A stretch of DNA of 25,272 bases from an uncultured Desulfobacteraceae bacterium. Lineage in GTDB: Bacteria; Desulfobacterota; DSM-4660; Desulfatiglandales; Desulfatiglandaceae. The notes beneath the pieces were generated by a model. That model ran no database searches. It saw only the letters and a list, made by a program, of their open reading frames with translations, and had not been told where the DNA came from. A program made the translations under genes and the position numbers. Numbering within the stretch: position 1 is the stretch's first letter; each line of letters opens with the position of its first letter. This document shows, one piece after another, positions 8,401 to 24,668 of this stretch. The DNA lies in NCBI GenBank assembly GCA_964463515.1, contig CAYXDR010000001.1:1-25272 (forward strand), read 5' to 3'.

Positions 8401-10821
8401 ATCATCTACCCCGGCGATGATCGCCTGGATGTTGGCCGGGTTCAACACGACCAGGGATATACCGTCTTCTGCATGGGGATAGATCCGCGCATATTCCTTG
8501 AGGATTTGGGAAATGACCCGTGATTCGCGGGTTTCCCGAAACAGCGCTGCGTCCTTGATGTCGTCGTCTTCGGGCGTGTCGTACTGCTGAAGGATTTTCG
8601 AGGAAAGCGGTCCGCTTTGGGCGGGCGGTTTTCCCACAAGGTGAATGTGGCCAAAGGAAGCGACTCGGGTGTCCAGCGCCCCGGTTGGAGTCGAAACGAG
8701 ACCGAACAACGGATAGTTGATGGTGGCTAGGTCGCAGATGTCCCGCCAGGTATTTTCAGTAATTTTGGTGCTGCTGTCGTCGTTCAGAAAAAACGTCGCC
8801 CGTTCCAGCCACGCATGGGCTAGAAACGCTTCCCGGTGATTGAGCATGCCCATGAGGGCGGGGTGCAAGGCGGTCACAGCGGCATGAGGGACAAACCGCG
8901 CCCAGGGAAAATTGGCGGCCTCTTCTGCCTTCGGTTTTTCGGTCAGCAAAAACGCCTTGTAAACAATGGGCCGGAATCTCTGAAATTCCGTTTTCTGGAT
9001 CAAATTTTGGATCACGTTTTCATATCGGTAATACAACCGACTGCCGTCGATCCAATGATCCTGAAGGGCGGAAAAGTACCCTTCATCGACCATCGCCCCC
9101 AAAAATTTGGCATAGGCGTCAGACAGGTCCGCTATCCCCAGCTTGCTCAGGTCTTTCAGGTCGATGTTCTGCAAGTTTTCAAACAGGTTGGCAATCGTCA
9201 GTTTGCTTAGCCCCGCACGAAGCACCCGGTGGATTTCGGTCTCGTCCGGCGCGAAAAACAGTTCAGGGTAGTGCTGAATGTGGTATACTGGCAGCCAGAA
9301 ACTGGGCTTCTCGACTTCATGGATCGCCCTGGCCATGTCCAGAAGATTCCGAAACGGATGGGTTTCCGGAAGCGCCCACTTGAATTTGCGGCGGACGCTG
9401 AGGCCTCTGATGTCTGATTTGAAGAGAATGTCAAACTGGAAATGGGGAACCGCGGTTTTTGTCTGGCCAAAAGGAAGGCTATCCATATCCAGCAATCCGG
9501 AGGAAAACTCGGCGTTGTCTTTCCCTTCTTCGGATTCCGGGGCTATGGGGCCGATGTATTTTTCCAGAAATGCGTCGATGCCCCCCAGCAACCCCCGTGC
9601 GAGCTCCTTGTTGTCGTTGTCGAAATCAACAAATTTTAAACCTCTGAGATAAATTCCCTTCAACGCATCAAAGGGTTGGATGGGGGATTTCTTTTTCCGT
9701 GTGCATTGAAATCTAAAATCGATGAGGGTCTGCCACAGTGCGGTTAAAATCGCTTCCAAAGGCGGACCATGAAGGGTTTTGAAGCCCTTGGGTTCTTTGA
9801 TTTTGTCCTCTTTGCCCTCGTCCTCGTCTTCCTCAAGTTCAGGTTCAGGCTGCGTATAGGTGTATCCGAGGATTTCATCCTTGAGCACGGCGAAATCGAA
9901 ATGGAGCAGCCGCCTACGGGCTTCTGGATCGTTGTACTCAACATAGATTTTGATGCAATCGAGGAGTTCATCTTCGCCCCCGAAGGCACCGCGAAGGTCG
10001 AGCGTAGGCTCTTTGTTCGGCCGGACCCGGAAGTCTTCCACTTTTTGGATGGCTTTTTTTCTGTCGTTCTCGTTGAAATATTTCTGATAACTAAAAAAAT
10101 CGATGGCAGCTTCAACATATTTTTTCCACTTGCTCCCTTTCATCTTGTGGAGAAACGGAAGCCCCCAGAAGGACAGGTTGCCGTAAAAAGCGGTCAGGGC
10201 GGCGTAGCTATCCATGACGCTAGTAAAATCGATCCATTCCAGAAAATCGGATATGCGAATCAAGTCGCCGGCCGCATGACGGCGAAGGGTTTCCAGGAGT
10301 TCTTCCATCGCCTCCAAGTGGGTCTCTTCCGGATCGATTTGCTTGTCGTACAAAAACCTTTCCAGCCAGCCCTTGAACCGGCTTTGCATCTCTTCTTTCC
10401 AAATTGTGTCTACCCCTACCTGATAAAAGTCTTCCAGACTGCCCTGGTCCGTAGCCTGCTCGACTCCAACCAGCATCACGATCAGCCCATCCTTCCCGGA
10501 TTCAGGTGTCCACTCAAGGTTTCTGTAATGCGTGAGCCGGTTTTCCGTGTCCACCCACCCGGCACTTTTGATCTGCTCCAAAATCTGTCCATCTGCCGTT
10601 TCTTCCCATTGCCGCCAGAGCTTGTAAGCGACTATGAATTGGAAGTCGATGTCTCGTTTGCTTTTTAGCCAGTATTCAGAGAGTTCGTTCCCAACTTCTT
10701 TGACCGCCGCGGGCGGTAGGGAGGAAAGAAACACGCGGAGTTCGCGGGTGTTGCGGTTTTTGAGGATAGGATGACATAGGGTTTTCAGATAAGTCAGAAG
10801 ACTCCGTGTAAAATAACGCAT
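5449..10821 (-). CDS. sspH: DndH(DptH)/SspH-like restriction protein with a PD-(D/E)xK nuclease motif and a C-terminal HerA/FtsK-type ATPase, 1790 aa
   Basis: C-terminal HILIFGKSGVGKT Walker A (6460-6483), IIVDYTNGF, IVLDEIQNL Walker B, and EGRKFGLSLILATQ (arginine finger and sensor of HerA/FtsK). YPDLL...ILECK lies at 7276-7353. Its size and third position after F- and G-like genes fit DndH/SspH. Confidence 0.72.
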   Translation of the reverse strand: MRYFTRSLLTYLKTLCHPILKNRNTRELRVFLSSLPPAAVKEVGNELSEYWLKSKRDIDFQFIVAYKLWRQWEETADGQILEQIKSAGWVDTENRLTHYRNLEWTPESGKDGLIVMLVGVEQATDQGSLEDFYQVGVDTIWKEEMQSRFKGWLERFLYDKQIDPEETHLEAMEELLETLRRHAAGDLIRISDFLEWIDFTSVMDSYAALTAFYGNLSFWGLPFLHKMKGSKWKKYVEAAIDFFSYQKYFNENDRKKAIQKVEDFRVRPNKEPTLDLRGAFGGEDELLDCIKIYVEYNDPEARRRLLHFDFAVLKDEILGYTYTQPEPELEEDEDEGKEDKIKEPKGFKTLHGPPLEAILTALWQTLIDFRFQCTRKKKSPIQPFDALKGIYLRGLKFVDFDNDNKELARGLLGGIDAFLEKYIGPIAPESEEGKDNAEFSSGLLDMDSLPFGQTKTAVPHFQFDILFKSDIRGLSVRRKFKWALPETHPFRNLLDMARAIHEVEKPSFWLPVYHIQHYPELFFAPDETEIHRVLRAGLSKLTIANLFENLQNIDLKDLSKLGIADLSDAYAKFLGAMVDEGYFSALQDHWIDGSRLYYRYENVIQNLIQKTEFQRFRPIVYKAFLLTEKPKAEEAANFPWARFVPHAAVTALHPALMGMLNHREAFLAHAWLERATFFLNDDSSTKITENTWRDICDLATINYPLFGLVSTPTGALDTRVASFGHIHLVGKPPAQSGPLSSKILQQYDTPEDDDIKDAALFRETRESRVISQILKEYARIYPHAEDGISLVVLNPANIQAIIAGVDDFLHQKLKKERAEEARDYPPYHLSLSLFMHVAESGEVSRWLSEWRKRWDPAEGATRYEFYQNCRLSVSQKVITQPDDYLILMKNGAANVDIAVLTRFMDTGEPSLNYEKTSPYKPDLDHLLKFPILEAPRCEDKRQSFPNLRSRIISNRRFRLAALHSELSVRLWSSDVPPDREHIVLSQSDFTPWAKIVDQMHRNASWVLCLDPSVDTRLIQKGSLDAQSEGKREIIGFASGVGTHGELNYTLSTERASLLDVQKMIQKRVNNLFGPWEPVDSENAARFLVREARKLSGISLVRATGRGEQVRDLIAYALVRRCLPVMAHNGPTLCDELVVLDAFPHWFTSIGGGREMYPDLLRISASLAEDGLIDVHATILECKISSNINRHIQKARSQLENGLHHLVARFRPKGGESNQAAYRFSGSSPIFRFDQRFWWAQLQRLIASKAVVENAELELATTALESLGEGRFRIQWKAAALTIWTEPTDYYNSDFFQTVEVWSFQQEGCEIAIPLISCGGALIRRIGRGNYPVALPLKSSETPPTSSPQALTAANLASTSQPIEPSDTLSPAEESASAETKDQDDGTPGSQQEGGESLEKGETTSPISTTVTRTPPNRLFLGVTDAKREIYWEFGHPELTNRHILIFGKSGVGKTYAIQALLLEMGLNGQNSIIVDYTNGFLPDHLEPVVVDILKPETHLVRQKPLPINPFRKQEQRITGFDPIPEDSHTVGGRIATVINSVYSNVGEQQRAVLIETIAAGLDEEGAEFRFPALLERLKEQGASGLTLANKLSPMVHMKLFGQDEAGNWDRLYGSGEVRANILQLAGVPRDIARIATEFILWDLYDYAANSGRKDVPLPIVLDEIQNLDHRLDAPLGKFLTEGRKFGLSLILATQTLSNLKGEERDRLFQASHKLFFKPAETEVKEYARILEQGSYEKAETWIARLNKLNRGECYSLGPTLNPGAGELENKIFKIHISSLQERLKKDSDND

Positions 10822-10844
10822 ATCTTCTCCGTCACAATTTTGGA

Positions 10845-12527
10845 TTATTTATCAGTGCTCTTTTCAGAAAACGGGTTTTCAATCAACGACACAGCATCTG
10901 ACAGCGGGGTCATAAAACCGGTGGCCAGCAACTTTTCTTCCAGCCATTGTTTGTGCCCGGCTGGCGCGCTCAGCTTCTGGTCGGGGTAGGTCCAGGCGAT
11001 GGCGTCGTTGAGCAAGGTTCCGGAAACCGCCGCGCCGTAGTGGCGGTAGAGGGCTTTCAGGAAGGTGGTCAAGCGCATCCGTTCGCCCGGCGGGATCAAG
11101 GCCAGTACAAAATACCGAAGCAAATTTTCTTGCAGCACGAAACGGGCGCCTGGCCCGGTTTTAGGGGCGATCAGGCCGATTTTCTTGCCCAATTTCACAA
11201 AAAGAGCCGTGCCCTGTTTGTCGGCATTCCGGTAGGTTTTTTCGCCGCTCTTTAGCGTCTGAATGCGACGGGTCCGGAGTGCGGCATGGAACATTTCCTT
11301 CACCCTGACCAGATTTTTCCGGGCGGCGGTTTTGAGAGCCCGGTCATCCAATTCGGGGTTCGTGATGATCCAGGCGTAGGGCTGGAGAGCGTCTTCGTCA
11401 TGAAGACCGGGATTGCCCCCCCAGTAGCGCCCGGCTTGGGCCGACAGGCTGCGTAGGACCTGGAACACGCAGCAAAGTTTGAGCATCTCGATTTTTTCCA
11501 CAGGGTCTAATAGCGCGGCGCTAATGTTTCGCAGTTCTATGGCGAACAGATAGGCTTCCGGCCAGCTTTCTTCCGGGCACCAGCCACATGTCGCACCTTT
11601 GGTCTCCCGGTCGATTTCTAAGGATGCGTCGGTCTCATTTTTTTCAATCCACGATGCGATACTGTTCAATATCGGGGCAGGTTTGCGAGATAGAAAGTCT
11701 TTGAGATTGTTTTCAATCTCCTCTTGGAGATTCTTCGCAGCGCCTGGGTAGCCCGCCCGTTCTTCAAATTCAAGGAGCTCGGGGGAATCTATCAGGCGGA
11801 AGAGATTGCATAGCTGAAGGTATAGGAGTTCGCCACCGCGGGCGAGGAAATCATGTTTGGAAAATGAAAACATTCTATTTTTCCAGGCTTGATGCCAATT
11901 CAAATTCGGTTCTTTCTTGCCTCTATTTTTTTCCCAAATGGCTTCTCCTGCGATTAATTCGGGAGCTAGTGGAATAAATGAATGTGCGGACCAGCCTCTA
12001 TTTCCCGAAACCCCTATAAATCCCATTAGAACTTGCTCAATTAATTCGATAGCGTCGCTTTTTGATAGGGATGGACTAGTATGTAAATGGTGTTTTAGAT
12101 TTGAAACTAGCTCTTGATATTTTTCAATGTGGCTTTTGTGCCTTCCTTCAACACCTGAAATCCCTAAAAACGAAAACAGCTTTATAATTATGTGCATTCT
12201 AGGATAATAAATCAAAGGTTTACCTGGGTCGACTTCTTGTAATTCACTAACTCTTGGAAAGCCTTTCCATTTATCTGAGTCTTTATACCCAAGCATATAA
12301 TTCGTTCCAATTTTTTTATCTGAAATAAAAATCAGCATGAATTCCACAAGATATTCGAGCTCTGTTTGATCATCTCGGACTCGTCGTCCAAACAATCGTA
12401 TAGCAGGATTAGCATCAGCGTTTTCATCCTCACCAATGTTTGGAAACTGCCTAACGTTACCGTTCGAAATTCTAGCGGATGACTTCAATTCCAATCCATT
12501 TTGCCATTGAAAATAATCCGATGGCAT
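10845..12527 (-). CDS. sspG: DndG(DptG)/SspG-like protein, 560 aa
   Basis: It lies between the F-like and H-like genes (gaps of 49 and 23 bp). The C-terminus (FLKALYRHYG...LEEKLLATGFMTPLSDAVSLIENPF) resembles the winged-helix-type tail seen in G-position proteins of DndFGH-like modules. Assignment rests on recalled motif plus synteny. Confidence 0.6.
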   Translation of the reverse strand: MPSDYFQWQNGLELKSSARISNGNVRQFPNIGEDENADANPAIRLFGRRVRDDQTELEYLVEFMLIFISDKKIGTNYMLGYKDSDKWKGFPRVSELQEVDPGKPLIYYPRMHIIIKLFSFLGISGVEGRHKSHIEKYQELVSNLKHHLHTSPSLSKSDAIELIEQVLMGFIGVSGNRGWSAHSFIPLAPELIAGEAIWEKNRGKKEPNLNWHQAWKNRMFSFSKHDFLARGGELLYLQLCNLFRLIDSPELLEFEERAGYPGAAKNLQEEIENNLKDFLSRKPAPILNSIASWIEKNETDASLEIDRETKGATCGWCPEESWPEAYLFAIELRNISAALLDPVEKIEMLKLCCVFQVLRSLSAQAGRYWGGNPGLHDEDALQPYAWIITNPELDDRALKTAARKNLVRVKEMFHAALRTRRIQTLKSGEKTYRNADKQGTALFVKLGKKIGLIAPKTGPGARFVLQENLLRYFVLALIPPGERMRLTTFLKALYRHYGAAVSGTLLNDAIAWTYPDQKLSAPAGHKQWLEEKLLATGFMTPLSDAVSLIENPFSEKSTDK

Positions 12528-12576
12528 TTTTGCAGCTCCTTTCCCCTATTTAGATCTAATATTGACTTGTTCTGGC

Positions 12577-15500
12577 TTACACAATTTCCAAAAAACCGTC
12601 CGACAGCATCACGCGAAATTGTTCCAGTTTTCCATCATGATTCAGTTGAATTAACCGCATCTCTTCGTGAGATTCGCTAGGGAGTCGGGCTGTGAGTAAA
12701 TTTTTAAACCACTCAAGCCGATCAAGGTAACCCAGATTCAACCGCTGTCCGAGTTCCCCTTCGCTGCGCAACAGCACGAAATCTAGAAATGGCAGATCAA
12801 GGGTCAAGTGGATTTCAGGGAAATAACGGTCTCGCAAAACAAGATGATATCGCTGTGGCCTGAATGTTTGGTAGATTTCCTCTAGAACCAGCTCAAAATT
12901 TGAAAAGGCGATCTCCGCAAGAAGAATCTGGACGCTCTGGCGAAGTGCTTCGTTACGTCGGTTGAGAGTAATGAACAGTTCGTTTCCGCGCCGGGTCTCC
13001 GGGATATAAAAACCCGTGTACTGCTCCAGTAGCACGTGCAACACTTTTTGCTTCAACTCTTCCCGACGTGTAGGCGTTAGTTTCGTCGGCGAGCATTGCC
13101 AGGATTCGGTTTCTACCAGCATGGGGGAGCCAGTGAACCCGCCTACGAAGTCCTTCTCACTCCCTGCTTCTGCAAATGCGCCGAACACAAAAAAGAGTCG
13201 CCTGAACTCCTGGCGGAAACGGGCGCCGACGGCCTCGGACCCATAGCCGGAAAGCGTCATTCCCCGAAGGCTCTCGAAAACTGGTTTCAGCGTGTCCGGC
13301 AGTAGAGGGGTCGGGCCCTCTTCGAAAGTCCACAGCACCCTGTCTAACGACAAAAAGGGTCTGGCGCCCATCTCTATCGGCATCAGACATTGAATAGCTT
13401 TGAGTCGCTGGGCCTTTTCATCTATAGAAGCGCCGTGAAACCCAAAGAAGCGATTGTAAAACAAATATGCGTTGACAGGCGGGGGCTTAGGGCTTTCAGC
13501 TATTTCCCGAATGCGCCCACAGTCTAGCCCGCCCGTCAGGCTATATGCTAGATGAGCCGACACCTGCCGCAAGGTCAATCGTTTGCCGTATTCATACAGC
13601 AGGCGATAAATCAAGGCGATCCGTTCCGATGTTATTTCATAGCTCTCCCGAATTGCTTTAAGATTCATCTGAACGGGGCAATGGGCATAAATATCGCACG
13701 ACCGGCACCCGTCCCAATTCTCGTTATCGACGAGCCGATGAAAAAGTTCCCGGGAGATTTGAAGGTTGTCGAGCTGCGACAGGTTGATCAGGACAAAGGG
13801 CACGCCAAGGTCCTTGAATTTCGTGGGTTCTTTTTCCCGGAGAAGTCCTAGAAGACTGTTGCCGATTTTGATTTCTGTGAGACCGTAGGCTGGGGCACAC
13901 GCTTCTAAGATCTCCAAAAGACGACCCGTGTTGGAAATGATCAGCCACCGCCCATCTCCTTGGGCAGCTCGGTTTAGAGCCCTTGCAGCTTCTTCGTCGG
14001 TCAGCTCACTCAAGTCCTTGATCAGGTGTATTTTATAGCCGTTGATTTGTTTTTCTTCATGGGACCCCAAGCCGGATTCTAAAGGCTCTGACATGTCCTT
14101 TTTTTCCAGCCTTTTAAAGATTTCCAGGCAAATCGTTGATTTGCCGTCCCCGGCATGCCCGGTCAGGATAATGTTCCCCCCATCGGTTCCTGTCAGCTTT
14201 TCCCACACCAGATCGGTCACGGGCCAGGCGACATGGATGGATCCGAAAAACAGGCTCCGAGCTTGGGCCTCAGCCAGCGCATTACGATTGTCGGCGGTGG
14301 TGTTGTGAAGCTGGTTCAAATAATCCAAGAAATTGCCTGCGGTCTCTAGCGCGTTTTCCCTTGCAGGCGGTGCTTCAGGGCTATACACGTGCCATTTTTC
14401 CGCCGATTCCGCCGTTTGTGGCGTCACTTGGACCGAGTCCTCATCGCTGAAAACAAAATCGAATTCATCTCTCATTTCGTTGATATTTTGAAAGCGTGCA
14501 TCACGAAACGGCTGAACGGCCTTGTGAAGCCAGAGTGAAAGCTCCTCTGGAATGTCCTTGCGATAGGAAGCTGCGAAACGCGGCGTGGCGGTAAGGGCAG
14601 GGGTCCCGGAATAAGGACTGACGCCGCACAGCCATTCAAACAGGGTGACGCCTAGGGCAAATAAATCTCCACTTTCGCAAAACTCATACTCGGCGCCCTG
14701 GAACAAATCTGGTGCCACATAGGCGTCTGTTCCCATATAGGGCCCTACGGATGGAACGCCCGAAGCACCGAAGTCGATTAATACAGGGGTGCCGTCCTCT
14801 TTGAGGAGTATGTTGTCGGGTTTGATGTCGTTGTGCAAAATGATGGTTTGGCGCGAGGGATCGGCATGCAAAGTCGCAATTCCTTCCATCAGACAAAATG
14901 CGACATGCCGGAAAAGGGGCAGTTCCGGGCGAATGCTGTTGTCGATCCGGTTTCGCAGCGGATTGCCGGAGACCAGTTCCAGAACCAAGTAATAGCGGCC
15001 ATCTGCCAATTGGTTGAAGGTTTCATAGCCGACAATACAGGGATTGGATACGGTTTTTAGGGCATCCCTTTCGGCGAAAATCCGATCAAGAGCCGAATCC
15101 TGGTGGTACAATTTTATCGCAACCCAGTTGTCGCTGCCCTGAAGCGCTTTGTAAACTTGGGAGTCGCGGCCTTTCCCGATCCATTCTTGAATGGTGTACA
15201 CACCGAAAATATCGCCTGGTTTTAGGATTCGATTGGATTCTCGGTGGGTTTCTTCAGCGATTTCTTTCAGTTCAAGCTGTAACTCGCCGATTTCCTGGGG
15301 CCGGTCCTTTCGTTGGAATTGGATCATCATGACGATGTCTGTTCGAAGGGATTCAGGAATGCCGATTTTGGCCAGTTTTGATTCGATAGATTCATACACG
15401 GATTGAGCGTCGGATATCAGATCCGTGGAATACTCGAAAGGCGGTTTGCCGATGAGCAGTTCATACGCTATAACCCCTAAACTGAAGATGTCCGTTGCCT

Positions 15501-17217
15501 CCGCAAAAGGCTGATGATGGTAAAGTTCCGGGGCGAGGTAAGGGGACCTCTGAAGTTGGAGGTCGTCGGGAAGAACCGTCAACCGGTTATCTTCAGGCAA
15601 GTAGGACAGATCGAAATTCATCAGTTTTGGCGTAGTCCCAAACATCATGATGTTTTCCGGGGTTAAATTGCGATGGACAATGCCTTCCTGATGAACAGCT
15701 TCAAGACCTTTGGCAATGCCTCGTATGATAGGCAAGGCCTTTTCAAGAGAAAAGGGGCCGCTTTTCTTCATCACATTGGCGAGCGTACCTTCTTTTCGAG
15801 ACCAGTCTGAAGCTTCGATAATCAGGCCTTCTTCATGATAAATGTCCCAAACCTTCAAAATGTTGGGATGATCACTTATCCTAGTCAGTGCTTTGAGACT
15901 GTTTCGGCTTTTGTTCCGCTGGTTCTCCCGTTCTTCCTGGCCTAGAGTGGGATCGATGGAAAAAATGCGGAGCCGCTTGACGGTTTGGAGCTGATTGCTG
16001 GTAGGTCTTGCCAATAGTTCAATGAGATGCTGCGAGTCAGTGAGATTTTCCAAAATCTCATAGCCCGGAATCTCGAGGCCCTTCCGCCGAGGGGATTGGG
16101 CTTCGTTGCGGAGGCGTTCCGCAATCTGCCTAGCTTGGGCGGTGGTCAGTATGGAATTCGGCTGCCCTAGGCAGCGTTTGAAATATTTCGTAAAGGTGGC
16201 AATGCTGTCGAAGGTAGGGGCTTTTTTTTCCGTTTTCGCTCCATCGGCGTTGTGGACCGTAGCATCCGGGTTTGTCAGAAGAACAATAGATTGAAAGGGA
16301 TAATCTTTAGGTATAAAGGGAAGTTTCTTTCTGCAAAACCCTCGCAGAACTTTTGCTTTGTAGTTGTTGGAGCGATGCGGATCTGTACATGGGGTCTGTT
16401 CGGGCCCCCTGAACCATTCGTAGGGGCGAACTTCGATTTCTCCGAACCAGTGTTTAAGTTCGACAATGGCTGTACAAAAGGATGAGACTACAATAAGGTC
16501 GCATTCAAGGTATTGGCTGGTAGAAGGGTCGTAAAGATCGAAGTTGGGGATTAGTTCAATTTGCTTTCCGAGAGCAGCGAAAATTTGTTTGAGAGCATTT
16601 TTTTCATGAGGAAATTTGCTTTTAATGTCCATATATTTTCTTCCTGATGCCATCATTACACGTGCTTTTGAATCACTAGTGATATCTGAATAATCAACAC
16701 TTGATTGCTCTTCCAAATTACTCTTGATTGCTTCAACATGGTATTTTGGAGAAAATATTGGTCCGGAAGAAACAATTTGAGATATTATTTCTTCTAATTT
16801 CGACTTGATAACATCACGATATCTTTTTGTTTTCAAAAGATTATACACATCAGGATTCAAAAATGAATAATTTATAATTTCATTGATCAATCTTGGTGTA
16901 AATCTTTTACGTTTGTTATATTCATTTTCTTTTCCTTGAAACACCTTGTGATTCCAAAAATTTGATGTGATAAGATGGTAATATGGATATTCAGGAAAAC
17001 ACTCATCTTCATTGGTGAATTTTTTCCATAAATATCTAAACATATTGATCAGTTCATCATCAAACGGAAAGCGATTCTCACGATTCGGATTTTCTTCAAT
17101 TAAATAACAGATTGAAAGAAGCAACACAAATTTATTTGGATTTGCTTTTTCAGATGACTTCCAAACGGATATCCTATTAATTTGTTTTAGTAATTCATCT
17201 ATTTGCAAATCAGACAT
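12577..17217 (-). CDS. Multidomain fusion: SBD-like domain + NERD nuclease + pseudokinase + Ser/Thr kinase + DndF/SspF-like P-loop domain, 1546 aa
   Basis: Residues about 1-145: NKFVLLLSICYLIE...EYPYYHL...FW. About 196-345: FPHEKNAL, ECDLIVV, IVELKHW (NERD). Kinase 1 has HRN(515-517) and NFD(534-536). Kinase 2 has IGKGRDSQVY, VAIK702, HNDIKPDN (H795) and DFG (D815). The C-terminal part has IILTGHAGDGKS (K1026), IKDLSE, ISNTGRL and a C..C.....CP cluster. The start overlaps the sspD stop by 19 bp. Confidence 0.8.
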   Translation of the reverse strand: MSDLQIDELLKQINRISVWKSSEKANPNKFVLLLSICYLIEENPNRENRFPFDDELINMFRYLWKKFTNEDECFPEYPYYHLITSNFWNHKVFQGKENEYNKRKRFTPRLINEIINYSFLNPDVYNLLKTKRYRDVIKSKLEEIISQIVSSGPIFSPKYHVEAIKSNLEEQSSVDYSDITSDSKARVMMASGRKYMDIKSKFPHEKNALKQIFAALGKQIELIPNFDLYDPSTSQYLECDLIVVSSFCTAIVELKHWFGEIEVRPYEWFRGPEQTPCTDPHRSNNYKAKVLRGFCRKKLPFIPKDYPFQSIVLLTNPDATVHNADGAKTEKKAPTFDSIATFTKYFKRCLGQPNSILTTAQARQIAERLRNEAQSPRRKGLEIPGYEILENLTDSQHLIELLARPTSNQLQTVKRLRIFSIDPTLGQEERENQRNKSRNSLKALTRISDHPNILKVWDIYHEEGLIIEASDWSRKEGTLANVMKKSGPFSLEKALPIIRGIAKGLEAVHQEGIVHRNLTPENIMMFGTTPKLMNFDLSYLPEDNRLTVLPDDLQLQRSPYLAPELYHHQPFAEATDIFSLGVIAYELLIGKPPFEYSTDLISDAQSVYESIESKLAKIGIPESLRTDIVMMIQFQRKDRPQEIGELQLELKEIAEETHRESNRILKPGDIFGVYTIQEWIGKGRDSQVYKALQGSDNWVAIKLYHQDSALDRIFAERDALKTVSNPCIVGYETFNQLADGRYYLVLELVSGNPLRNRIDNSIRPELPLFRHVAFCLMEGIATLHADPSRQTIILHNDIKPDNILLKEDGTPVLIDFGASGVPSVGPYMGTDAYVAPDLFQGAEYEFCESGDLFALGVTLFEWLCGVSPYSGTPALTATPRFAASYRKDIPEELSLWLHKAVQPFRDARFQNINEMRDEFDFVFSDEDSVQVTPQTAESAEKWHVYSPEAPPARENALETAGNFLDYLNQLHNTTADNRNALAEAQARSLFFGSIHVAWPVTDLVWEKLTGTDGGNIILTGHAGDGKSTICLEIFKRLEKKDMSEPLESGLGSHEEKQINGYKIHLIKDLSELTDEEAARALNRAAQGDGRWLIISNTGRLLEILEACAPAYGLTEIKIGNSLLGLLREKEPTKFKDLGVPFVLINLSQLDNLQISRELFHRLVDNENWDGCRSCDIYAHCPVQMNLKAIRESYEITSERIALIYRLLYEYGKRLTLRQVSAHLAYSLTGGLDCGRIREIAESPKPPPVNAYLFYNRFFGFHGASIDEKAQRLKAIQCLMPIEMGARPFLSLDRVLWTFEEGPTPLLPDTLKPVFESLRGMTLSGYGSEAVGARFRQEFRRLFFVFGAFAEAGSEKDFVGGFTGSPMLVETESWQCSPTKLTPTRREELKQKVLHVLLEQYTGFYIPETRRGNELFITLNRRNEALRQSVQILLAEIAFSNFELVLEEIYQTFRPQRYHLVLRDRYFPEIHLTLDLPFLDFVLLRSEGELGQRLNLGYLDRLEWFKNLLTARLPSESHEEMRLIQLNHDGKLEQFRVMLSDGFLEIV

Positions 17218-18092
17218 GTCTCTGCCTCTTCCTCTTCCCTGATATTATTCAGAATGCTATCTCCTTCTGTTCGGAAATCCATATTTTGAAAATGATCAAG
17301 AAGTTTTTTCTTTCCTAATGATGTTTTATTAGTAACCTTTGAAGCTGCGTTTTTAAGGATTTCATCTCGCCTATCAATGAGCTCCCTTAGCGTTTCACCT
17401 TCACTCCAGGTATAATTTTTTTTCCTGCTATTGATATTTTTGTAATCAAAATTAGATTCCCTGAAATTGTCATAAAATTCCTCGAATTGACAGGCCTTCT
17501 GAAAACACTCAGGATGGTTGTCATATAACGCAATCCATTCTTCTTTCCTTTGAAAAAAGCAAAAATAACAACCCGATCTACTTCTCCATTTATAGTAATC
17601 AGGAATCCCAACATCTGTTTCCGCCAATATTTGAAAAACATCTCTTTTTACTATATTATCCTCAATAAATGGATAAAATGGCACAATATTGTTTTTGCCA
17701 TGGGGATCATAGCCCATTCTGTCTTCATCAGCTCGCAAGGCAATATAAATATAGGCAAAATCATTGCCTATATATTTTTCAAAAGGTTCAATTTTGAGTT
17801 GCCGGGTACACCAACGATTTGTTGGTGAAGGAAGACATCCATAATATATTCTTAGGAGCGCAGTAAAACGATCCGTTTGCGGTTTATTTTTCGGAAGCCT
17901 AATAATTCTGATCTGAAGATAGGCCTCCATGCGCTCCAAGTATTCATATGTTTCTGGCAATTCATGGCCCGTATCCAAAAAAACATATTCTATATTCGGA
18001 ACTCGATCTTTCAGATACACCGCCAATGCGGCGCTGTCTTTCCCGCCCGACAAAGCCAGAATATGTCTTTTATTATCGCTTTTTCTTGGCAT
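17199..18092 (-). CDS. sspD: SspD-like PAPS-reductase-family (PP-loop) DNA phosphorothioation enzyme, 297 aa
   Basis: PP-loop LSGGKDSAAL (about 18035-18052), VFLDTGHELPETY, RWCTRQLK, RSGCYFCF and a C-terminal CLIC. It is adjacent to DUF4007 and SspC-like ATPase genes. A GGGAAG SD-like sequence lies upstream. Confidence 0.88.
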   Translation of the reverse strand: MPRKSDNKRHILALSGGKDSAALAVYLKDRVPNIEYVFLDTGHELPETYEYLERMEAYLQIRIIRLPKNKPQTDRFTALLRIYYGCLPSPTNRWCTRQLKIEPFEKYIGNDFAYIYIALRADEDRMGYDPHGKNNIVPFYPFIEDNIVKRDVFQILAETDVGIPDYYKWRSRSGCYFCFFQRKEEWIALYDNHPECFQKACQFEEFYDNFRESNFDYKNINSRKKNYTWSEGETLRELIDRRDEILKNAASKVTNKTSLGKKKLLDHFQNMDFRTEGDSILNNIREEEEAETCLICK

Positions 18093-18277
18093 CTATTTTT
18101 CTTCCCTGTTAACTGCATTTTTAATTAGTTCAACAATACCTTAAGGCAACATCCAAATGAGCAAGATTTCGATCATATTAGTCCAAGTACCATTAGAACA
18201 ACGCTGTTTCTGTATGCAACAATTCGAAATACATTTGATTTGATAAGAATTAATTAACTTGATAGTGTAAGTATATT

Positions 18278-18305
18278 ATTTTAGAAAATATGAACATACA
18301 AACAA
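18278..18305 (-). promoter_or_regulatory. Possible sigma70-type promoter upstream of sspD
   Basis: On the minus strand, TTGTTT-16 nt-TAAAAT lies in the only long intergenic gap of the cluster (18093-18413). The region is very AT-rich, so a chance match is plausible. Confidence 0.25.
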
Positions 18306-18413
18306 TATGAAAGCCATGGTTGCAGAATAAAACATAAATATTCTAAAAGTCTTTACGGGCTTTTCTTTTCTTGAAATCGGTCAACCACCATCCCAAGTTG
18401 CAAATTCAGCAAC

Positions 18414-21400
18414 TCAATCTTTTTCCCCGCTCTTCGTTTTATCACCCAACAAATGTTCACCCATCATTATTAGTAATGATTTGAGTTGATCAGGATCATT
18501 TCCCTCTATCAATCGAGCCATCTTTTCTTTCACACCTGCCATCTCCTCCTTATTCATCCAGACGATTTCGCTTTCCATAGTTCCGTCCGGGCGAGTTAAC
18601 GAAATCAGCCGCGCCTCTTTGCCTTCTTTACCTTCTGGCAACCTCCGCCGCTCCTCTGCCGCTAATCGCTCCAGCGCCAGAAAACGCCGGGCAAGGTCAT
18701 GCATGCGAGTTGAAAACCCACTCAAATCCGCATCGCTCCAGGATTCCACCAGCCGCTGACTGACGATGGTCCCAATGGCGGATACCCACTCATTGTCCGT
18801 TCCTCGGTTCCGCGCCAAGATTGCTACCAGCGGCTTCAAGCGTTTCTCGGAACACCGCCTTACCAAGGGCGTAGCTCGTTCCTTCAGGTCTTCACGAAAC
18901 GTCTTGAGATCTCCCCGGCTACCGAATGCTTCCTGAAGGACCATTCGGATCCTGTCCTCCAGCCGCTCGAATGCCTGGGCTAGCTCCCCCACCGCATTGC
19001 GGAATCGATTTTGGAAATCTTCGACAGCTTGAGCGTCGAAGTCAGGCGTGCCATCAAAGGCTGAAACACCGACAGCCTTTGGCAGATCCGTGAACAGCAA
19101 ATCAATGGGGTCTTTTGAATGGAGCAGTGCCTGGAGCAGGTTCCGGGCCTCCCGGCTAACCGATCGGGTCTCTTTCACGTAGGCCGGCAGCCGGTCCGCA
19201 AACTGGACCAGCGGGCCCACAATGTTGACCATGGTGGAGTTTCGCAGTTGGCGATCCTCCTGGAACGGGCTGCTATTCAACAACTCCTGGTAAACTCGGA
19301 AGACTTTCCCCTGAATGCCCAATGGCGAAAATTTGCGCACGTCAAAATATTCCGGCCGCTTGACCATCAGTTCCAGATCTTCCGGTGTCAGATACGGGAT
19401 GAACGCTCCCTCCTGATACAGCGCCGTATCTTCGGAGCGGACCAGGAGATACAGGCAGATTAAGATAGGGATCGGGCCATCCTTCATTCCAAAGGGCGGC
19501 TTCCGAAGCATGGCGATCAGGTTAGGCAGGTGCAACAGCGCGTCCTCGGTCCGGTCCAAAGCTGTGTCAAGGGCCTGCCACGCCGCATAAAAATGAGTAT
19601 CCGGTTCCGGCGGGAAAAACCGCCATGCCATTTCGCCATCGTGTCGATGCAGTCCCTCGGCCGCCAACATCGTTCGGTAAATGGCTACTTCCGGGCCTGT
19701 CCCGCTCAGCCCCAGTTTCTCCTTGGTTTCCCCGTTCAGCATGGCTTGGATGAGTTCCCGCTGTGCACGGGCCGCAGCGGAGGACAACCGAGCCCGGTTA
19801 ATCAACTCGTTCCGAATCACCGGACAGCTTTGATACGTCTCGTCGCACAAGCGGGAAAGCAATCCCGATAAGTCCCGTATGGAACTCAAGTCATACCGGC
19901 GTTCTCCGCTTTGCCAGACCACTTCAGGGTTGCCAGGGGTATACAGATCCGCCAGAAACCGCTTTAGCTGCTCCTCTGCGGCACCGGCTCGAAAAAGGGC
20001 CTCGCGCCGGGCCACACCGTCCCGTTCTAGTTCAGGCGCCTCTGTCAGGATGGCGGTAGCAGCCGCAGCTTCCAGTGCCCGTTCCCGGAGCCGGTCCTCC
20101 TCCCGGGCAAAAGCAACCAGAACGGGTCGTCCGTCGTCAGTCTTGCCCGGAAATCCATTCAATGGCCCATCATTGCCGAAAACATAAAGCAACAGGCCAT
20201 CCGCTTCCTCCGCTTTAAAAGCCGTCACGGCTTCCGCAACATCGTCCACAGCACACCAATGCCGCTTAAAATGGCGCAGCGTGCCAGTGCGGTAGGAGTG
20301 GCGCGAAGCAGTCAAAGGCAACATGGGCGCCGCCTTCTCCAAAAGCTCCGCTAGAGGTCGTGCCGCGATGGCTGGTTTATGCCGGTCGATAGCCTCCGGG
20401 ATGTCAATGTCGCTTCCCTCCCATAGCCGGAATTCATCGGCATATTCCCGGTAAATCAGCATCCCCTTTTCCGATAAAGGGCCCAGAGATGACTCCAGGG
20501 CCTCGTCGGCGTCCATTCCGGGCTGCGATACCGCAAAGCGCAGCAGGTCGCGGGAAGCCCGAAACCCAGACGGGCCAGAGATCAGATTTAAAAGACCGAT
20601 GGTTTTGAGCAGGTTTCTCTGAGGCCTGGGCAGGTTGCGGGCACCATCGACTATATCGTGAATTTCAAACCAGCGGCTGGCCCCTGGGCGGCTCAGCGCC
20701 ATGGAAGGAGCCGCCCCGAGGAAATAGTCATACAGCCGCTCAGGCCCGAAGGTCGGTGCGCCATATCCTGTCTTGTCCAGCTCCCGGTTTCCAAGGAACG
20801 CCGGCAGGGCGTGCGGTTCGCCGCCGCAAAGAAAGGCGAACAGCGTCCGATCGTTTTGAGCGAAACGGGTGCACAATTCCGGCAGCAGGGCGGCGGTCAG
20901 CGGATGGAGCGGGAAAAAGCGCGCCATTGACTTCGCATCGGCCCCGGCGATTTCCGTAACACCTAAACGATCCGTTTCCCGCTGATAATGTTCGGCCCAG
21001 TCCTTAACAGAGTGGAACGCATCCGGCGCTCGGTCCGGCCGACCTAACGCTTCTCCGATGAAATCGAGCATCTGGATGCGCGGCTCCACAAAGGAAATGT
21101 CCTCGAATCTCCCCTGAACTTTTCCCCATTCCTGTCGCTGAAGACGGCTGAGGCCAGCGCCATATGCTTCGAAAGCCTGGTGGAGGCATACCCAGAGATA
21201 AATGTTTTCGCTTTCCGCCAGGGTCTGGACAATGAACAGGTCGCCCCGGCCCGGATGCCGGGCCAGGTATTCGAGGTTCTTTCCGAACTCGTCGATAACG
21301 ACGGCTAGGGGCGACCGGCTGATCCGGCCTGCTTCCTGGAATAACGCCACTAGTCGGGCGGCATCGAGTTCTTCACCGGAAAGATAATCGGCAATGTCGG

Positions 21401-21884
21401 CAGCCAACAGGTTGAAGGCTTTTTTGGTGGGGTCGGATTTACCAGCAGCGCCCACGGCCCGGGCTAAGGCCGCTCCCAGAGTTCGATTGACCGGCTCGAA
21501 GGCAGCGGTGGCGGGAACCCGAAAGAATCCCTTGGACTTGAACCGCCGCTTTTTCATTGTTTCCATCAGTTGCGCCGACAGCGCGCTATCCTTCCGCTCC
21601 AGCATGTTTCGGGCGGTGCGAGCTTTGGATTCTTTGATTGGATCGCCGCAAAGGGAAAGCAGAAAATGGACAAAGGCCGATTTCCCCATGCCGTATGGGC
21701 CAGTCAAGGACCAGGCGGATGCCCTTTGGCCATTGAGTCCAGCAGAAAGCCGATGAATGATCTCCAGCCCCTTTCCAGTCAGAAGATACCGATCAAGGGT
21801 TTCCGGGTCGTTCAGATCCCTTTCCAGGTTGACCGAGCGGGCGATTTGGGCATCGGGGCGAACAATTTCTGATAGTTTCATCAC
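18414..21884 (-). CDS. sspC: SspC-like P-loop ATPase, 1156 aa
   Basis: RSVNLERD N-terminus, Walker A TGPYGMGKS (about 21678-21704), Walker B VVIDEFGKNLEY, GRFEDISF, FPLHP and RFAQNDRTLFAFL. It sits between DUF4007 and the PAPS-reductase gene. The start is coupled to the upstream stop (GTGATG): either GTG at 21884 or ATG at 21881. Confidence 0.85.
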   Translation of the reverse strand: MMKLSEIVRPDAQIARSVNLERDLNDPETLDRYLLTGKGLEIIHRLSAGLNGQRASAWSLTGPYGMGKSAFVHFLLSLCGDPIKESKARTARNMLERKDSALSAQLMETMKKRRFKSKGFFRVPATAAFEPVNRTLGAALARAVGAAGKSDPTKKAFNLLAADIADYLSGEELDAARLVALFQEAGRISRSPLAVVIDEFGKNLEYLARHPGRGDLFIVQTLAESENIYLWVCLHQAFEAYGAGLSRLQRQEWGKVQGRFEDISFVEPRIQMLDFIGEALGRPDRAPDAFHSVKDWAEHYQRETDRLGVTEIAGADAKSMARFFPLHPLTAALLPELCTRFAQNDRTLFAFLCGGEPHALPAFLGNRELDKTGYGAPTFGPERLYDYFLGAAPSMALSRPGASRWFEIHDIVDGARNLPRPQRNLLKTIGLLNLISGPSGFRASRDLLRFAVSQPGMDADEALESSLGPLSEKGMLIYREYADEFRLWEGSDIDIPEAIDRHKPAIAARPLAELLEKAAPMLPLTASRHSYRTGTLRHFKRHWCAVDDVAEAVTAFKAEEADGLLLYVFGNDGPLNGFPGKTDDGRPVLVAFAREEDRLRERALEAAAATAILTEAPELERDGVARREALFRAGAAEEQLKRFLADLYTPGNPEVVWQSGERRYDLSSIRDLSGLLSRLCDETYQSCPVIRNELINRARLSSAAARAQRELIQAMLNGETKEKLGLSGTGPEVAIYRTMLAAEGLHRHDGEMAWRFFPPEPDTHFYAAWQALDTALDRTEDALLHLPNLIAMLRKPPFGMKDGPIPILICLYLLVRSEDTALYQEGAFIPYLTPEDLELMVKRPEYFDVRKFSPLGIQGKVFRVYQELLNSSPFQEDRQLRNSTMVNIVGPLVQFADRLPAYVKETRSVSREARNLLQALLHSKDPIDLLFTDLPKAVGVSAFDGTPDFDAQAVEDFQNRFRNAVGELAQAFERLEDRIRMVLQEAFGSRGDLKTFREDLKERATPLVRRCSEKRLKPLVAILARNRGTDNEWVSAIGTIVSQRLVESWSDADLSGFSTRMHDLARRFLALERLAAEERRRLPEGKEGKEARLISLTRPDGTMESEIVWMNKEEMAGVKEKMARLIEGNDPDQLKSLLIMMGEHLLGDKTKSGEKD

Positions 21885-22849
21885 TGCGCCCTTCTCTTAT
21901 AGTAAGCTTCCAGCGTCGCATCCCGCAATTCCATGGGATCGCTCTCGAACTGTAGTTGTTGATTGCCGTAGGATTCGGTGAACACGACTCCGTCTATTCC
22001 AGATGTAGCGCGGTCCAGCCGCCTGCCAATGTCGGTCTCGGAAAGCTGGAAGACGCGACCGGGGCTGTTCCACCCATAGGCAATGGCGCTCAGAGCCAGA
22101 CTTTTCGCCCCCGCGCTGTAGTGATGTGCGAACTCGAAGCAGGCAGCCATAAAGATCGCATCCGGCAGATCTGCCTTCTCGCCTAAATGGAATCGATAAT
22201 AGCCCTTGGTTTCCGCGGGCATTATAAAGCCCAAATGGGTAAAGGGGCATTCGATCTCGTCGGATTTGCTGTCTCGGGGGGGCGCATACATCCGAATAAA
22301 ACAGGAAGCGTCCTTTTCGAAGGAGGAGGCCGATAAGCGGCTGAATCCTGGGATGTCGGCGGTATATTCGCTGAATTTCCGGGCTAGCTCCTTGGCAGCA
22401 AAGCCTCCGGCAGCTGACTGGTTGATCGAAATCGGCCATGCGGGAGCCACGATTGGCGGGACAAACAGATTCCAGTGGAGCAGCCACAGGCTCGCAGGAT
22501 CTTCTAGGTAGGGATCCCATCCATCGTCGGCAAGGAGGGCTTTACCCAACGGCGCGGGTTGCATGAGACCGCTCACTTTGGGAACATCAGCTTTATCTTT
22601 AGGGGCGATGACGTGGAAGGCCACACACCAGAACCGGATGGATCGGACCATGTTCTTGCCCACCCCTAGGATTTCGATGGCGTCGTCTCGGTCGAAGATG
22701 GCTGGATCGCCGGATTGTGAATCGGCTCCATTTAAATCCAAAAACCCCGCTACTCCGTCATACCCTTTCTTGAGCCATCCATAGCGAGGGCAAAAAGTTT
22801 CGTGGCGGGCGAAAAATCCGGTTCGGGTTTTGTGTTGAGGGGAGGTCAT
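21881..22849 (-). CDS. sspB: SspB-like DUF4007-family protein, 322 aa
   Basis: FARHETFCPRYGWLKKG, LGVGKNMVRSIRFW, WDPYLEDPASLWLLHW and IECPFTHLG are characteristic DUF4007 motifs. AGGAGA SD is 6 nt before the ATG. Confidence 0.88.
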   Translation of the reverse strand: MTSPQHKTRTGFFARHETFCPRYGWLKKGYDGVAGFLDLNGADSQSGDPAIFDRDDAIEILGVGKNMVRSIRFWCVAFHVIAPKDKADVPKVSGLMQPAPLGKALLADDGWDPYLEDPASLWLLHWNLFVPPIVAPAWPISINQSAAGGFAAKELARKFSEYTADIPGFSRLSASSFEKDASCFIRMYAPPRDSKSDEIECPFTHLGFIMPAETKGYYRFHLGEKADLPDAIFMAACFEFAHHYSAGAKSLALSAIAYGWNSPGRVFQLSETDIGRRLDRATSGIDGVVFTESYGNQQLQFESDPMELRDATLEAYYKRRAQ

Positions 22850-23522: not shown

Positions 23523-24668
23523 TCACAACTCTGTTTCTTTTACTGTTTCTTCGATGAAACGCTCCATTTCCTCTTTCTTTGGGAGCTCGAGCTGGTACTT
23601 GGAGACGAAGAGGCCGTTGTCCATGCCGGCCAGCGCATACTCCACCAGCGTGCGATCCCTCTGGGTGCAGAGCAGAATGCCCACCGGCGGGTTGTCCCCG
23701 TCCGTCATCATGTTTTTCCTGTACCAGCTCACATAAGTGTTCAGCTGGCCGATGTTTTCGTGGCTGAACCGGTCGAGCTTCAGCTCCACCAGGATGTGGC
23801 ACTTGAGCACCCGGTGATAGAACACGAGGTCCACGAAGTTGTGGGTGTCGCCGATCAGGATGCGCTTCTGACGGGCCTCGAAGCAGAACCCGTGACCCAG
23901 CTCGAGCAGGAAGTCCTGGAGCTTGTCCAGGAGCTGATCCTCCAGCTGGGACTCGCTCATGACCTCCTTTGGCTTCAGACCGAAAAACTCGAAGACATAG
24001 GGATCGCGGATCGCCAGCTTGGGCCCTGCGGTTTCCGCGCCTTTTTTGGCCAGCTCTGCCAGCTTTTTCTTGTCCTTGGACAACCCGGAGCGCTCGTAGT
24101 AGAGGCTGCTGATCTGGCGCTTGAGCTCGCGGACAGACCAGTTCCCGCGGATGCACTCGACTTCGTAGAAAGCGCGTTTGAGATCGTCATCGACCTTGAT
24201 CAACTCCACGAAGTGAGTAAAGGACAAGGTACCCACAAGTCGATCTGTGGTGACGCCCCATTGAGCAGAACCCGCCTGATCCATGGTCGGCTCTGCGGTT
24301 TCGGGAAGTGCAGGCAATTCGGAAATCGCTGATTTCCCTTTCTCGGGCCAACTGAATTTGGCAATCACCGATTTCCGAATCCGGGGATAGGTCGTATAAA
24401 GTTGCCGGCAAAGACGCAAGTATCTGGCAGAGTAGCACTGGTCGAGGGAGGTTTTCAGTTCTTTGCTCAGAAGTTCGAGGACTTGATCCCCATAACCCGC
24501 TCGGTCCGAACCCTTTTGCTCAAATTCTCTGATATAGCAGCCAATCACCCAGTTCCTCAGCGTCAGACTGACGTTTACGGCCCGCCCTGCCTGGGCGGCC
24601 ATGTATTCGTGGGTTTTCCGGATGGTGTCGACAAGCGCACTGAAATCGAATCCTGCGTTTTCCACCAT
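23523..24668 (-). CDS. yhcG: YhcG/DUF1016-family PD-(D/E)xK nuclease domain protein, 381 aa
   Basis: RAVNVSLTLRNWVIG, LSFTHFVELI, WSVRELKRQI, IRDPYVFEF, LLELGHGFCFEARQKRI, VDLVFYHRVLKCHILVELK, HENIGQLNTYV, PPVGILLC and SKYQLELP are all typical of this family. Confidence 0.92.
   Translation of the reverse strand: MVENAGFDFSALVDTIRKTHEYMAAQAGRAVNVSLTLRNWVIGCYIREFEQKGSDRAGYGDQVLELLSKELKTSLDQCYSARYLRLCRQLYTTYPRIRKSVIAKFSWPEKGKSAISELPALPETAEPTMDQAGSAQWGVTTDRLVGTLSFTHFVELIKVDDDLKRAFYEVECIRGNWSVRELKRQISSLYYERSGLSKDKKKLAELAKKGAETAGPKLAIRDPYVFEFFGLKPKEVMSESQLEDQLLDKLQDFLLELGHGFCFEARQKRILIGDTHNFVDLVFYHRVLKCHILVELKLDRFSHENIGQLNTYVSWYRKNMMTDGDNPPVGILLCTQRDRTLVEYALAGMDNGLFVSKYQLELPKKEEMERFIEETVKETEL

Follow-up and report, generated by a model that had tools for sequence, protein, structure and literature searches.

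An SspF-type protein with an N-terminal sulfur-binding domain, encoded directly behind a phosphorothioate writer in a Desulfobacteraceae genome

In the Hahella ganghwensis enzyme Hga, a sulfur-binding domain (SBD; here SBDHga, PDB 8H0L) is attached to a PD-(D/E)xK nuclease that cuts phosphorothioate (PT)-modified DNA and is directed at invaders carrying PT (Hu et al., NAR 2023). SBDs also occur in the type IV enzymes ScoMcrA and SprMcrA (5ZMO, 7CCD), which have an SBD-(SRA)-HNH layout. Here, we describe an SBD at the N-terminus of a large SspF-type protein (the F protein) of an uncultured Desulfobacteraceae bacterium. The whole stretch of DNA that was analyzed, termed the window, is 25,272 nt long (GCA_964463515.1, contig CAYXDR010000001.1, positions 1-25,272) and holds the F gene directly after the PT writer genes sspB, sspC, and sspD (Table 1). 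In contrast to the Hga arrangement, this SBD is fused to NERD, kinase, and SspF domains and lies beside its own PT writer. Unlike ScoMcrA and SprMcrA, the F protein has no HNH or SRA domain, and the logic is the opposite, with modification-dependent restriction in those enzymes and self-marking in the window system. Assignment as a PT-dependent type IV endonuclease does not fit, as the F protein contains no HNH or NOV_C domain and its gene directly follows sspBCD.

The SspFGH system of Vibrio anguillarum FF-93 (Wang et al., mBio 2021) shares with the window locus the position after sspBCD, an F core with a Walker A motif, a G gene, and an FtsK/HerA-like H gene. Vibrio SspF was published as having no recognizable domain except Walker A, whereas the PADLOC SspF models (525 to 607 positions) begin at residue ~962 of the window F protein, which has ~960 extra N-terminal residues comprising the SBD, the NERD domain, and two kinase domains. 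The window locus also differs by an extra pair of DUF4007-like and BrxC-like genes. How SspFGH senses PT was termed "poorly understood," as was sensing by DndFGH, as late as January 2026 (PMC12914056). SspE and DndI, which are PT-sensing DUF262-DUF1524 nickases, are like the window system effectors of self-marking PT systems and read host PT via a hydrophobic patch; they differ in having an unrelated ParB-like NTPase fold with Tyr30/Tyr25 and no SBD.

The F gene belongs to a described but uncharacterized architecture. Hu et al. (NAR 2023) gave an architecture of "SBD + unknown domain + kinase," and Krishnan, Burroughs, Iyer and Aravind (NAR 2024) described a "wHTH-NERD-kinases-DndF" architecture. 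In the passages of the latter paper considered here, the P-loop kinase has a Walker B Asn that matches the IISN motif of the window protein, and the SBD of HNH enzymes is stated to be a winged helix-turn-helix (wHTH); in these same passages the wHTH of DndF is not equated with the SBD, no SspFGH or sspBCD context is given, and the N-terminal domains are read as backup suicide effectors. Among the papers searched, none mentions SspF together with the SBD. The architecture itself is already known, and what our sequence analysis would add is the joining of these two observations, the identification of SBD plus SspF in an sspBCD-FGH setting, the finding that this fusion is highly frequent in SspF proteins, and its interpretation as a reader.

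The initial annotation of the window had proposed an SBD-like domain that lacks an HNH nuclease and sits directly behind sspD, and all three claims were borne out, the second by a Pfam scan of the F protein and the third by the PADLOC match of the upstream gene. A phmmer search with F residues 1-200 against every PDB chain returned a single strong match, 8H0L ("SBDHga1"; E 1.2e-16), with residues 24-143 aligned to residues 24-144 of 8H0L_A, and BLASTP gave 33% identity to the same structure (E 5e-22). The NCBIfam model NF045808 (phosphorothioated DNA-binding restriction endonuclease) matched residues 8-132 over model positions 2-123 of 284 (E 3e-9); the score of 36 bits lies under the 180-bit cut-off because the HNH half is missing and the SBD half alone matches. 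A profile of 78 SBD sequences, searched against PDB sequences, reached 8H0L only and not ScoMcrA or SprMcrA, so that the link to these enzymes needed a fold comparison. An AlphaFold2 model of the domain, built on 78 homologs, had a mean pLDDT of 94.2 and a pTM of 0.88. In a Foldseek search of the PDB with this model, the top 14 matches were all sulfur-binding domains, with 8H0L at TM 0.81-0.86 (rmsd 2.2-2.6 A) and SprMcrA (7CCD, 7CCJ, 7CC9) and ScoMcrA (5ZMN, 5ZMO, 5ZMM) at TM ~0.6. By sequence and by fold, F residues 1-~155 are a genuine SBD. The initial annotation would have been refuted by the lack of a structural match to this fold, and the Foldseek matches clearly speak against that outcome. 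The PADLOC models found nothing on this part of the F protein.

We favor the reading, which we hold to be fairly probable, that the SBD reads the host's own PT marks for the SspFGH restriction module, with PT acting as the off signal. In such a mechanism, the SBD would be a functional PT reader of the SBDHga type. SspBCD, together with a cysteine desulfurase encoded elsewhere, would write PT on the host's own DNA, and the SBD would dock the F protein, and hence the SspF-G-H motor/nuclease complex, on Rp-PT linkages. By analogy with DndFGH and DndI, docking would restrain the complex on self DNA, either bringing ATP-driven translocation to a stop or letting the complex go; DNA that lacks PT would give no signal and would be attacked. 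In long forms such as the window protein, the NERD domain and the pseudokinase/kinase pair could provide a second effector or a signaling output under the same PT control.

The pocket of the domain was compared with those of the two characterized SBDs. The SBDHga cavity is formed by H25, K26, L75, P76, and H79 (PMC10602919), and that of ScoMcrA by H116, R117, Y164, P165, and A168, of which P165 and H116 show the highest conservation and R117 is a lysine in most homologs (PMC6224610). At the corresponding positions, the window SBD has N28 (cavity histidine, H25/H116), K29 (basic residue, K26/R117), Y77 (lid residue, L75/Y164), P78 (cavity floor, P76/P165), and H81 (fifth wall residue, H79/A168), and differs from SBDHga in the changes of His25 to Asn and Leu75 to Tyr. 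The residues quoted in the initial annotation, P27-N28-K29-F30, E76-Y77-P78-Y79-Y80-H81-L82, and F87-W88, are present with the right numbering. Among 78 aligned SBDs, K29 and P78 are invariant (78/78), and P27, H28, L33, N48, F60, L82, and W88 are at least 90% conserved. Position 28 is His in 73 of the 78 sequences and Asn in 4, a count that includes the window and a 70%-identical relative; Asn is also found there in the SspF of Thiocapsa imhoffii. The earlier statement that an H-K/R-P loop had been altered to N28-K29-F30 holds for the histidine but not for the rest of the motif, as the subfamily reads P-H-K and not H-K-P and the lysine is kept. The cavity receives a beta-methylene from the His (PMC6224610), and Asn also has a beta-methylene, so that one is kept at position 28. 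A basic stretch, K102-R103-K104-R105...R109, is found at the place where L4/A5 contact DNA. Within it, R105, together with T107, is a signature of the SspF-linked SBD clade, whose full signature is E-Y-P, R105, and T107.

Comparison with the closest relative (L002), which is 70% identical, gave a dN/dS of ~0.25 for the SBD (dN 0.175, dS 0.69), and N28 is kept in this relative. In a 98.8%-identical strain from a different study, the SBD core carries three synonymous changes and one non-synonymous change, with no indels and an untouched pocket. These comparisons indicate that the SBD is maintained under purifying selection and is not decaying. The linker that follows (residues 156-199) is the quickest-evolving part of the F protein relative to L002, with 45% identity versus 74% for the whole protein, and the AlphaFold2 model dips to a pLDDT of 62 at residues 151-160.

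The SBD lies in an AT-rich block (window 16500-18450; 28-37% GC versus 50-58% around it) whose extent coincides exactly with the SBD, linker, sspD, and sspC-sspD spacer (321 nt). L002 (SBD 30%, sspD 38%, rest 52-55%) and Desulfofundulus (L008) show the same dip, which therefore predates the split of these lineages without having been ameliorated. An assembly chimera at the GC shift was rejected, as independent contigs from four runs, one of them from another study at 98.8% identity, cross the junctions without indels and L002 has the same continuous open reading frame (ORF) with the same dip. An in-frame ATG at 16630-16632 (Met196), with a Shine-Dalgarno-like AGGAAG, stands just ahead of the NERD domain, at approximately the start of SBD-less homologs (Thauera, L009). 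An SBD-less isoform from this internal start is not supported, and no second start is conserved, because Met196 is Pro in the closest relative. A promoter and terminator scan of 16400-18700 gave no more sites than shuffled sequence.

To determine how often the fusion recurs, an exhaustive HMMER search with the SBD was used, since a word-indexed protein search with residues 1-200 had returned one full-length relative only. The HMMER search yielded 410 representatives at E<=1e-3. Among the best 150 of these, 25 carry an SBD with NERD/kinase domains, at least 14 of them full-length (~1500-1550 aa), and 15 carry an SBD with SspF (~700-840 aa); the remainder either are short fragments or have the SBD linked to HNH_2, NOV_C, or DUF4007. 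The long form, SBD-NERD-kinase-kinase-SspF, is present in at least 14 representative clusters at 50% identity, with members in Desulfofundulus thermosubterraneus DSM 16057 and in metagenome-assembled genomes (MAGs) of Atribacteria, Bacillota, and Syntrophomonadaceae. Short forms, SBD-SspF, make up at least 13 representative clusters and come from Desulfobulbaceae, Verrucomicrobia, Mailhella, Clostridiales, Chromatiaceae, Thiocapsa, Thiofilum, and others. In the SBD tree, the SspF-linked domains make up one half (35/78 rows, the "other" rows within this half being truncated fusions) and a further small clade. Because the long and short forms intermingle in the tree, gain or loss of the NERD-kinase block has occurred repeatedly. 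When the count starts at the SspF core instead, the SBD profile identifies 68 of the 120 nearest clusters (90% identity) as SBD-SspF fusions, and 5 more have a weak SBD or PF26340 match, giving ~61%; the proteins in these clusters are annotated "hypothetical protein" by every source. A sample of 400 genomes from one class gave 5 SspF matches, too few for an SBD frequency. The genome that contains the window encodes this one SBD and no second. A crystallographically defined PT reader on the F subunit, present in most relatives of the window SspF and lying beside the PT writer, indicates the subunit and surface at which self-recognition may happen.

The gene order around the fusion is equally regular. 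Upstream DNA could be read for 18 SBD-bearing F loci, and all 18 have sspD, in some cases with sspA after it, directly upstream. In the window, the ATG of the F gene at 17217 gives a 19-nt overlap with the end of sspD, and this start is sound because the alignments to homologs begin at residues 1-6. Outside the Ssp systems, the domain is most closely related to those of SBD-HNH and SBD-PD-(D/E)xK (NOV_C) restriction enzymes, and a nuclease domain comes after the SBD, as would be expected if the SBD directed the NERD nuclease to foreign DNA with a different PT pattern in the manner of SBD-HNH enzymes. However, translational coupling ties the F gene to its own PT writer in all 18 loci, the short SBD-SspF forms have no nuclease beside the SBD, and the closest solved SBD is sequence-promiscuous (PMC10602919), so that self DNA would be bound too. 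Because a PT-cutting SBD-nuclease beside its own PT writer would be suicidal, PT reading must be non-destructive. We regard such type IV-like restriction as highly improbable, and the detection of a foreign PT pattern as the least likely of the functional proposals in the initial annotation; its other proposal, that the domain licenses or inhibits the effector domains on self PT-DNA, appears reasonable.

An SBD on the first gene after the writer is also seen in a second type of locus. SBD-DUF4007 fusions (e.g., P0069) stand directly after sspB-sspC-sspD in Ssp-BREX hybrid loci and account for 13 of the 43 "other" SBD proteins scanned; in two of these loci, the fusion gene lies at 9541-10863 (L089) and 9424-10746 (L090). 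It is followed by a 155-aa gene, a BrxC-like ATPase, PglZ, BrxL, and a cysteine desulfurase, and the ATPase is homologous to the product of the BrxC/SspC-like ATPase gene of the window (E 6e-28). L089 and L090 combine a PT writer with a BREX-type effector that has an SBD of its own, and two different effector designs therefore each carry the SBD on the first gene after the writer. This placement also bears on the idea that the SBD informs the modification genes of PT density, for example via the kinase, and so limits over-modification without controlling restriction. PT systems modify only 10-15% of their consensus sites (PMC12914056), and sspD and the SBD share one AT-rich block, both of which would suit feedback on the writer. 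In the loci seen, however, the SBD is always on the first effector gene (SspF or the DUF4007-BREX type) and never on SspB, SspC, or SspD, and the short forms have no kinase; we consider writer feedback scarcely credible. A wider and more tentative proposal, which we think doubtful as a whole, is that the SBD is a general "head" of the effector modules that follow sspD (placed on SspF in F-G-H systems and on a DUF4007 protein in Ssp-BREX hybrids), a sensor of PT self DNA for SspFGH-type restriction, and, in long forms, a coupling of PT reading to Ser/Thr phosphorylation.

The direction of the proposed control was considered in light of related systems. PT represses the ATPase and translocation of DndFGH and frees DndI from self DNA (PMC11662687), and SspFGH, which causes damage to non-PT DNA, is toxic when PT is absent (PMC8092258). 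An SBD bound to host PT could instead switch on or load the F protein, which would then act on incoming DNA as SspE does, making PT a requirement for defense. In line with this, PT stimulates the NTPase of SspE and DndI (PMC11662687), and SBD-bearing genes are always beside a writer, as expected if PT is needed for activity. The toxicity of SspFGH without PT is, however, the opposite of the SspE phenotype, and the repression of the DndFGH ATPase points the same way. We therefore view a PT-activated effector as unlikely and prefer self-recognition with PT as the off signal.

Several observations weigh against a self-PT reader for SspFGH. Pfam PF26340 (DNA-SBD_ScoMcrA) gave no match in the window SBD even at E<=10 (residues 1-150, 1-200, and 1-210), while precomputed PF26340 matches exist on ~24 SBD-SspF relatives and feature neighbors in the ESM Atlas also carry it. 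The conserved cavity histidine has not been kept, H25A weakens binding by SBDHga (PMC10602919), and H116I causes a 94% loss of binding in ScoMcrA (PMC6224610). The L1/L3 backbone contacts of SBDHga, R17, R18, H19, R70, and N72, correspond to K20, S21, S22, E72, and F74 in the window, whose basic residues lie instead in the stretch at residues 102-109. Since the His also contacts the backbone and its mutants bind less well, N28 may weaken or retune PT binding. Beyond the pocket, the proposed direction is drawn entirely from analogy, and about a third of the nearest SspF-core clusters (~39/120) are core-only, without an SBD. The genome of Arsukibacterium, which has a core-only SspFGH, contains no SBD anywhere, so its complex must sense PT otherwise or be PT-independent. 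As Vibrio SspF was reported without homology beyond Walker A, the SBD cannot be the sole PT sensor of SspFGH. Finally, the association of the SBD with an adjacent writer was not significant after flanks were re-inspected (p 0.10; loci not independent). A naive p of 0.02 was dropped, as in two "writer-less" loci the upstream gene was a cysteine desulfurase or an SspE-like GmrSD gene, which left their status ambiguous. No writer lies near some SBD-less F-G-H loci, and the contrast in writer adjacency between SBD-bearing and SBD-less loci is only suggestive.

The pocket observations would be accommodated if the domain had become a generic DNA anchor, keeping the SBD fold but losing sulfur specificity and tethering the F protein as an ordinary winged helix. 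Loss of the otherwise conserved His28, the unconserved L1/L3 contacts, and the failure of PF26340 all agree with this. In contrast, the other four pocket positions are retained, with the lysine and proline invariant, the domain is under purifying selection with N28 conserved in the nearest relative, and Asn supplies the same beta-methylene as His (PMC6224610). Moreover, the canonical His is present in most sister fusions, and the loss would therefore concern no more than the window lineage. We judge a generic anchor quite unlikely and infer that the N28 variant binds PT and that SspFGH is the target of its regulation. The identification makes the PT-sensing question for SspFGH directly testable, including with point mutants at K29 and P78 and with N28H. 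Were the wider and more tentative proposal true, the long forms would contain the first protein kinases under the control of a DNA backbone modification. SBDs serve as tools for PT-oligonucleotide capture and targeting, and the SspF-linked clade offers specificities that have yet to be exploited, perhaps including one for the single-strand CpsCA mark.

The domains that the initial annotation had placed after the SBD, a NERD domain, kinases, and an F-type P-loop core, were recovered by Pfam, NCBIfam, and PADLOC. In the NERD domain, D240/E253/K255 are invariant in 15/15 full-length homologs. Kinase-like domain 1 has HRN in place of HRD and NFD in place of DFG, in a family with the consensus HR[A/N] plus NFD, and judging from these motifs it is probably an inactive pseudokinase. 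Kinase domain 2 looks active, as its catalytic set is intact (K702, H795-x-D797, N802, and D815-F-G817) and invariant among the full-length homologs aligned. The core matches all six PADLOC SspF models and has a Walker A motif, GHAGDGKS, and the Walker-B-like IISN, with G1020-K1026 and N1096 invariant in full-length homologs. The NERD and tandem kinase block is shared with PglW (BREX type 2) and MAD6 (MADS); the NCBIfam models matched over residues 205-785 for MAD6 (2.9e-115; 386 bits, under the 460 cut-off) and residues 199-946 for PglW (1e-56; 193 bits, under the 990 cut-off). PglW and MAD6 belong to methylation-based systems and have neither an SBD nor an SspF core, so the F protein shares a module with them but is of a different protein family.

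SBD-less relatives comprise core-only SspF in ~18 loci and a NERD-kinase-SspF protein in Thauera sp. WH-1. A separate SBD gene in SBD-less SspF loci was considered and rejected, the genes in the sspD-sspF gap being cysteine desulfurases (sspA). In a Bacillota MAG (L015 9908-14061), an SBD-less F gene is broken up into three ORFs (NERD; kinase 1 and part of kinase 2; kinase 2 and SspF), which may reflect a decaying copy or sequencing errors. In Psychrobacter maritimus (L024 2577-4628), a GmrSD-type gene (DUF262/DUF1524, SspE/DndI-like) lies directly upstream of a core-only sspF, and this may be a combined SspE and SspFGH arrangement.

On the minus strand, the genes of the window locus follow the order sspB-C-D-F-G-H, which is kept in related loci, with the sspG-like gene in an identical position in all of them. 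The product of the sspH/dndH-like gene has a HerA/FtsK-type ATPase at its C-terminus. A pair of DUF4007-like and BrxC/SspC-like genes is kept downstream of sspH in at least 18 related loci, and SspFGH, published as a module of three genes, may in many cases comprise five. No cysteine desulfurase is encoded within the window and three are encoded elsewhere in the genome, which parallels the IscS-dependent Vibrio system.

Table 1. Features of the window, with positions counted from its first nucleotide
Feature	Position	Strand	Basis or detail
F protein ORF	12577..17217	-	1546 residues
SBD (winged-helix variant), F residues 1-~155	16753..17217	-	pocket N28 (usually His), K29, Y77, P78, H81
Linker, F residues ~156-199, fast-evolving	16621..16752	-	45% identity to closest relative, dN 0.38
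NERD nuclease domain, PD-(D/E)xK type, F residues ~200-335	16213..16620	-	Pfam PF08378 7e-8
Kinase-like domain 1, F residues ~400-662	15232..16020	-	Pfam PK_Tyr_Ser-Thr/Pkinase
Ser/Thr kinase domain 2, F residues ~665-945	14383..15225	-	Pfam Pkinase 3e-58
SspF-type P-loop core, F residues ~960-1546	12577..14340	-	PADLOC SspF PDLC02795 3e-35 (profile positions 2-322 of 560) and five other SspF models
sspD, PAPS-reductase-type ATP pyrophosphatase of PT writer	17199..18092	-	PADLOC SspD 2e-92; Pfam PAPS_reduct
sspC, BrxC-like ATPase of PT writer	18414..21884	-	PADLOC SspC, 1117 bits
sspB (DUF4007)	21881..22849	-	Pfam DUF4007 4e-79; PADLOC SspB 3e-89
sspG-like gene	10845..12527	-	PADLOC SspG 8e-16, C-terminal part
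sspH/dndH-like gene, 1790 aa	5449..10821	-	PADLOC DndH 1e-54, SspH 9e-19; Pfam DUF87, TrwB_AAD_bind
Second, divergent DUF4007-like gene	4617-5456	-	Pfam/PADLOC
BrxC/SspC-like ATPase gene, 1443 aa	209-4540	-	Pfam/PADLOC

Two further features of the locus were observed. The sspG-like gene is mosaic in appearance, with residues 1-215 (window 12000-12600) at 38% GC and a GC3 of 31% and the remainder at 54% GC. Adjoining the ssp locus on the same strand, at 23523-24668, is a gene for a YhcG/DUF1016 PD-(D/E)xK nuclease, which matches the PADLOC candidate system PDC-S02 (1e-129).

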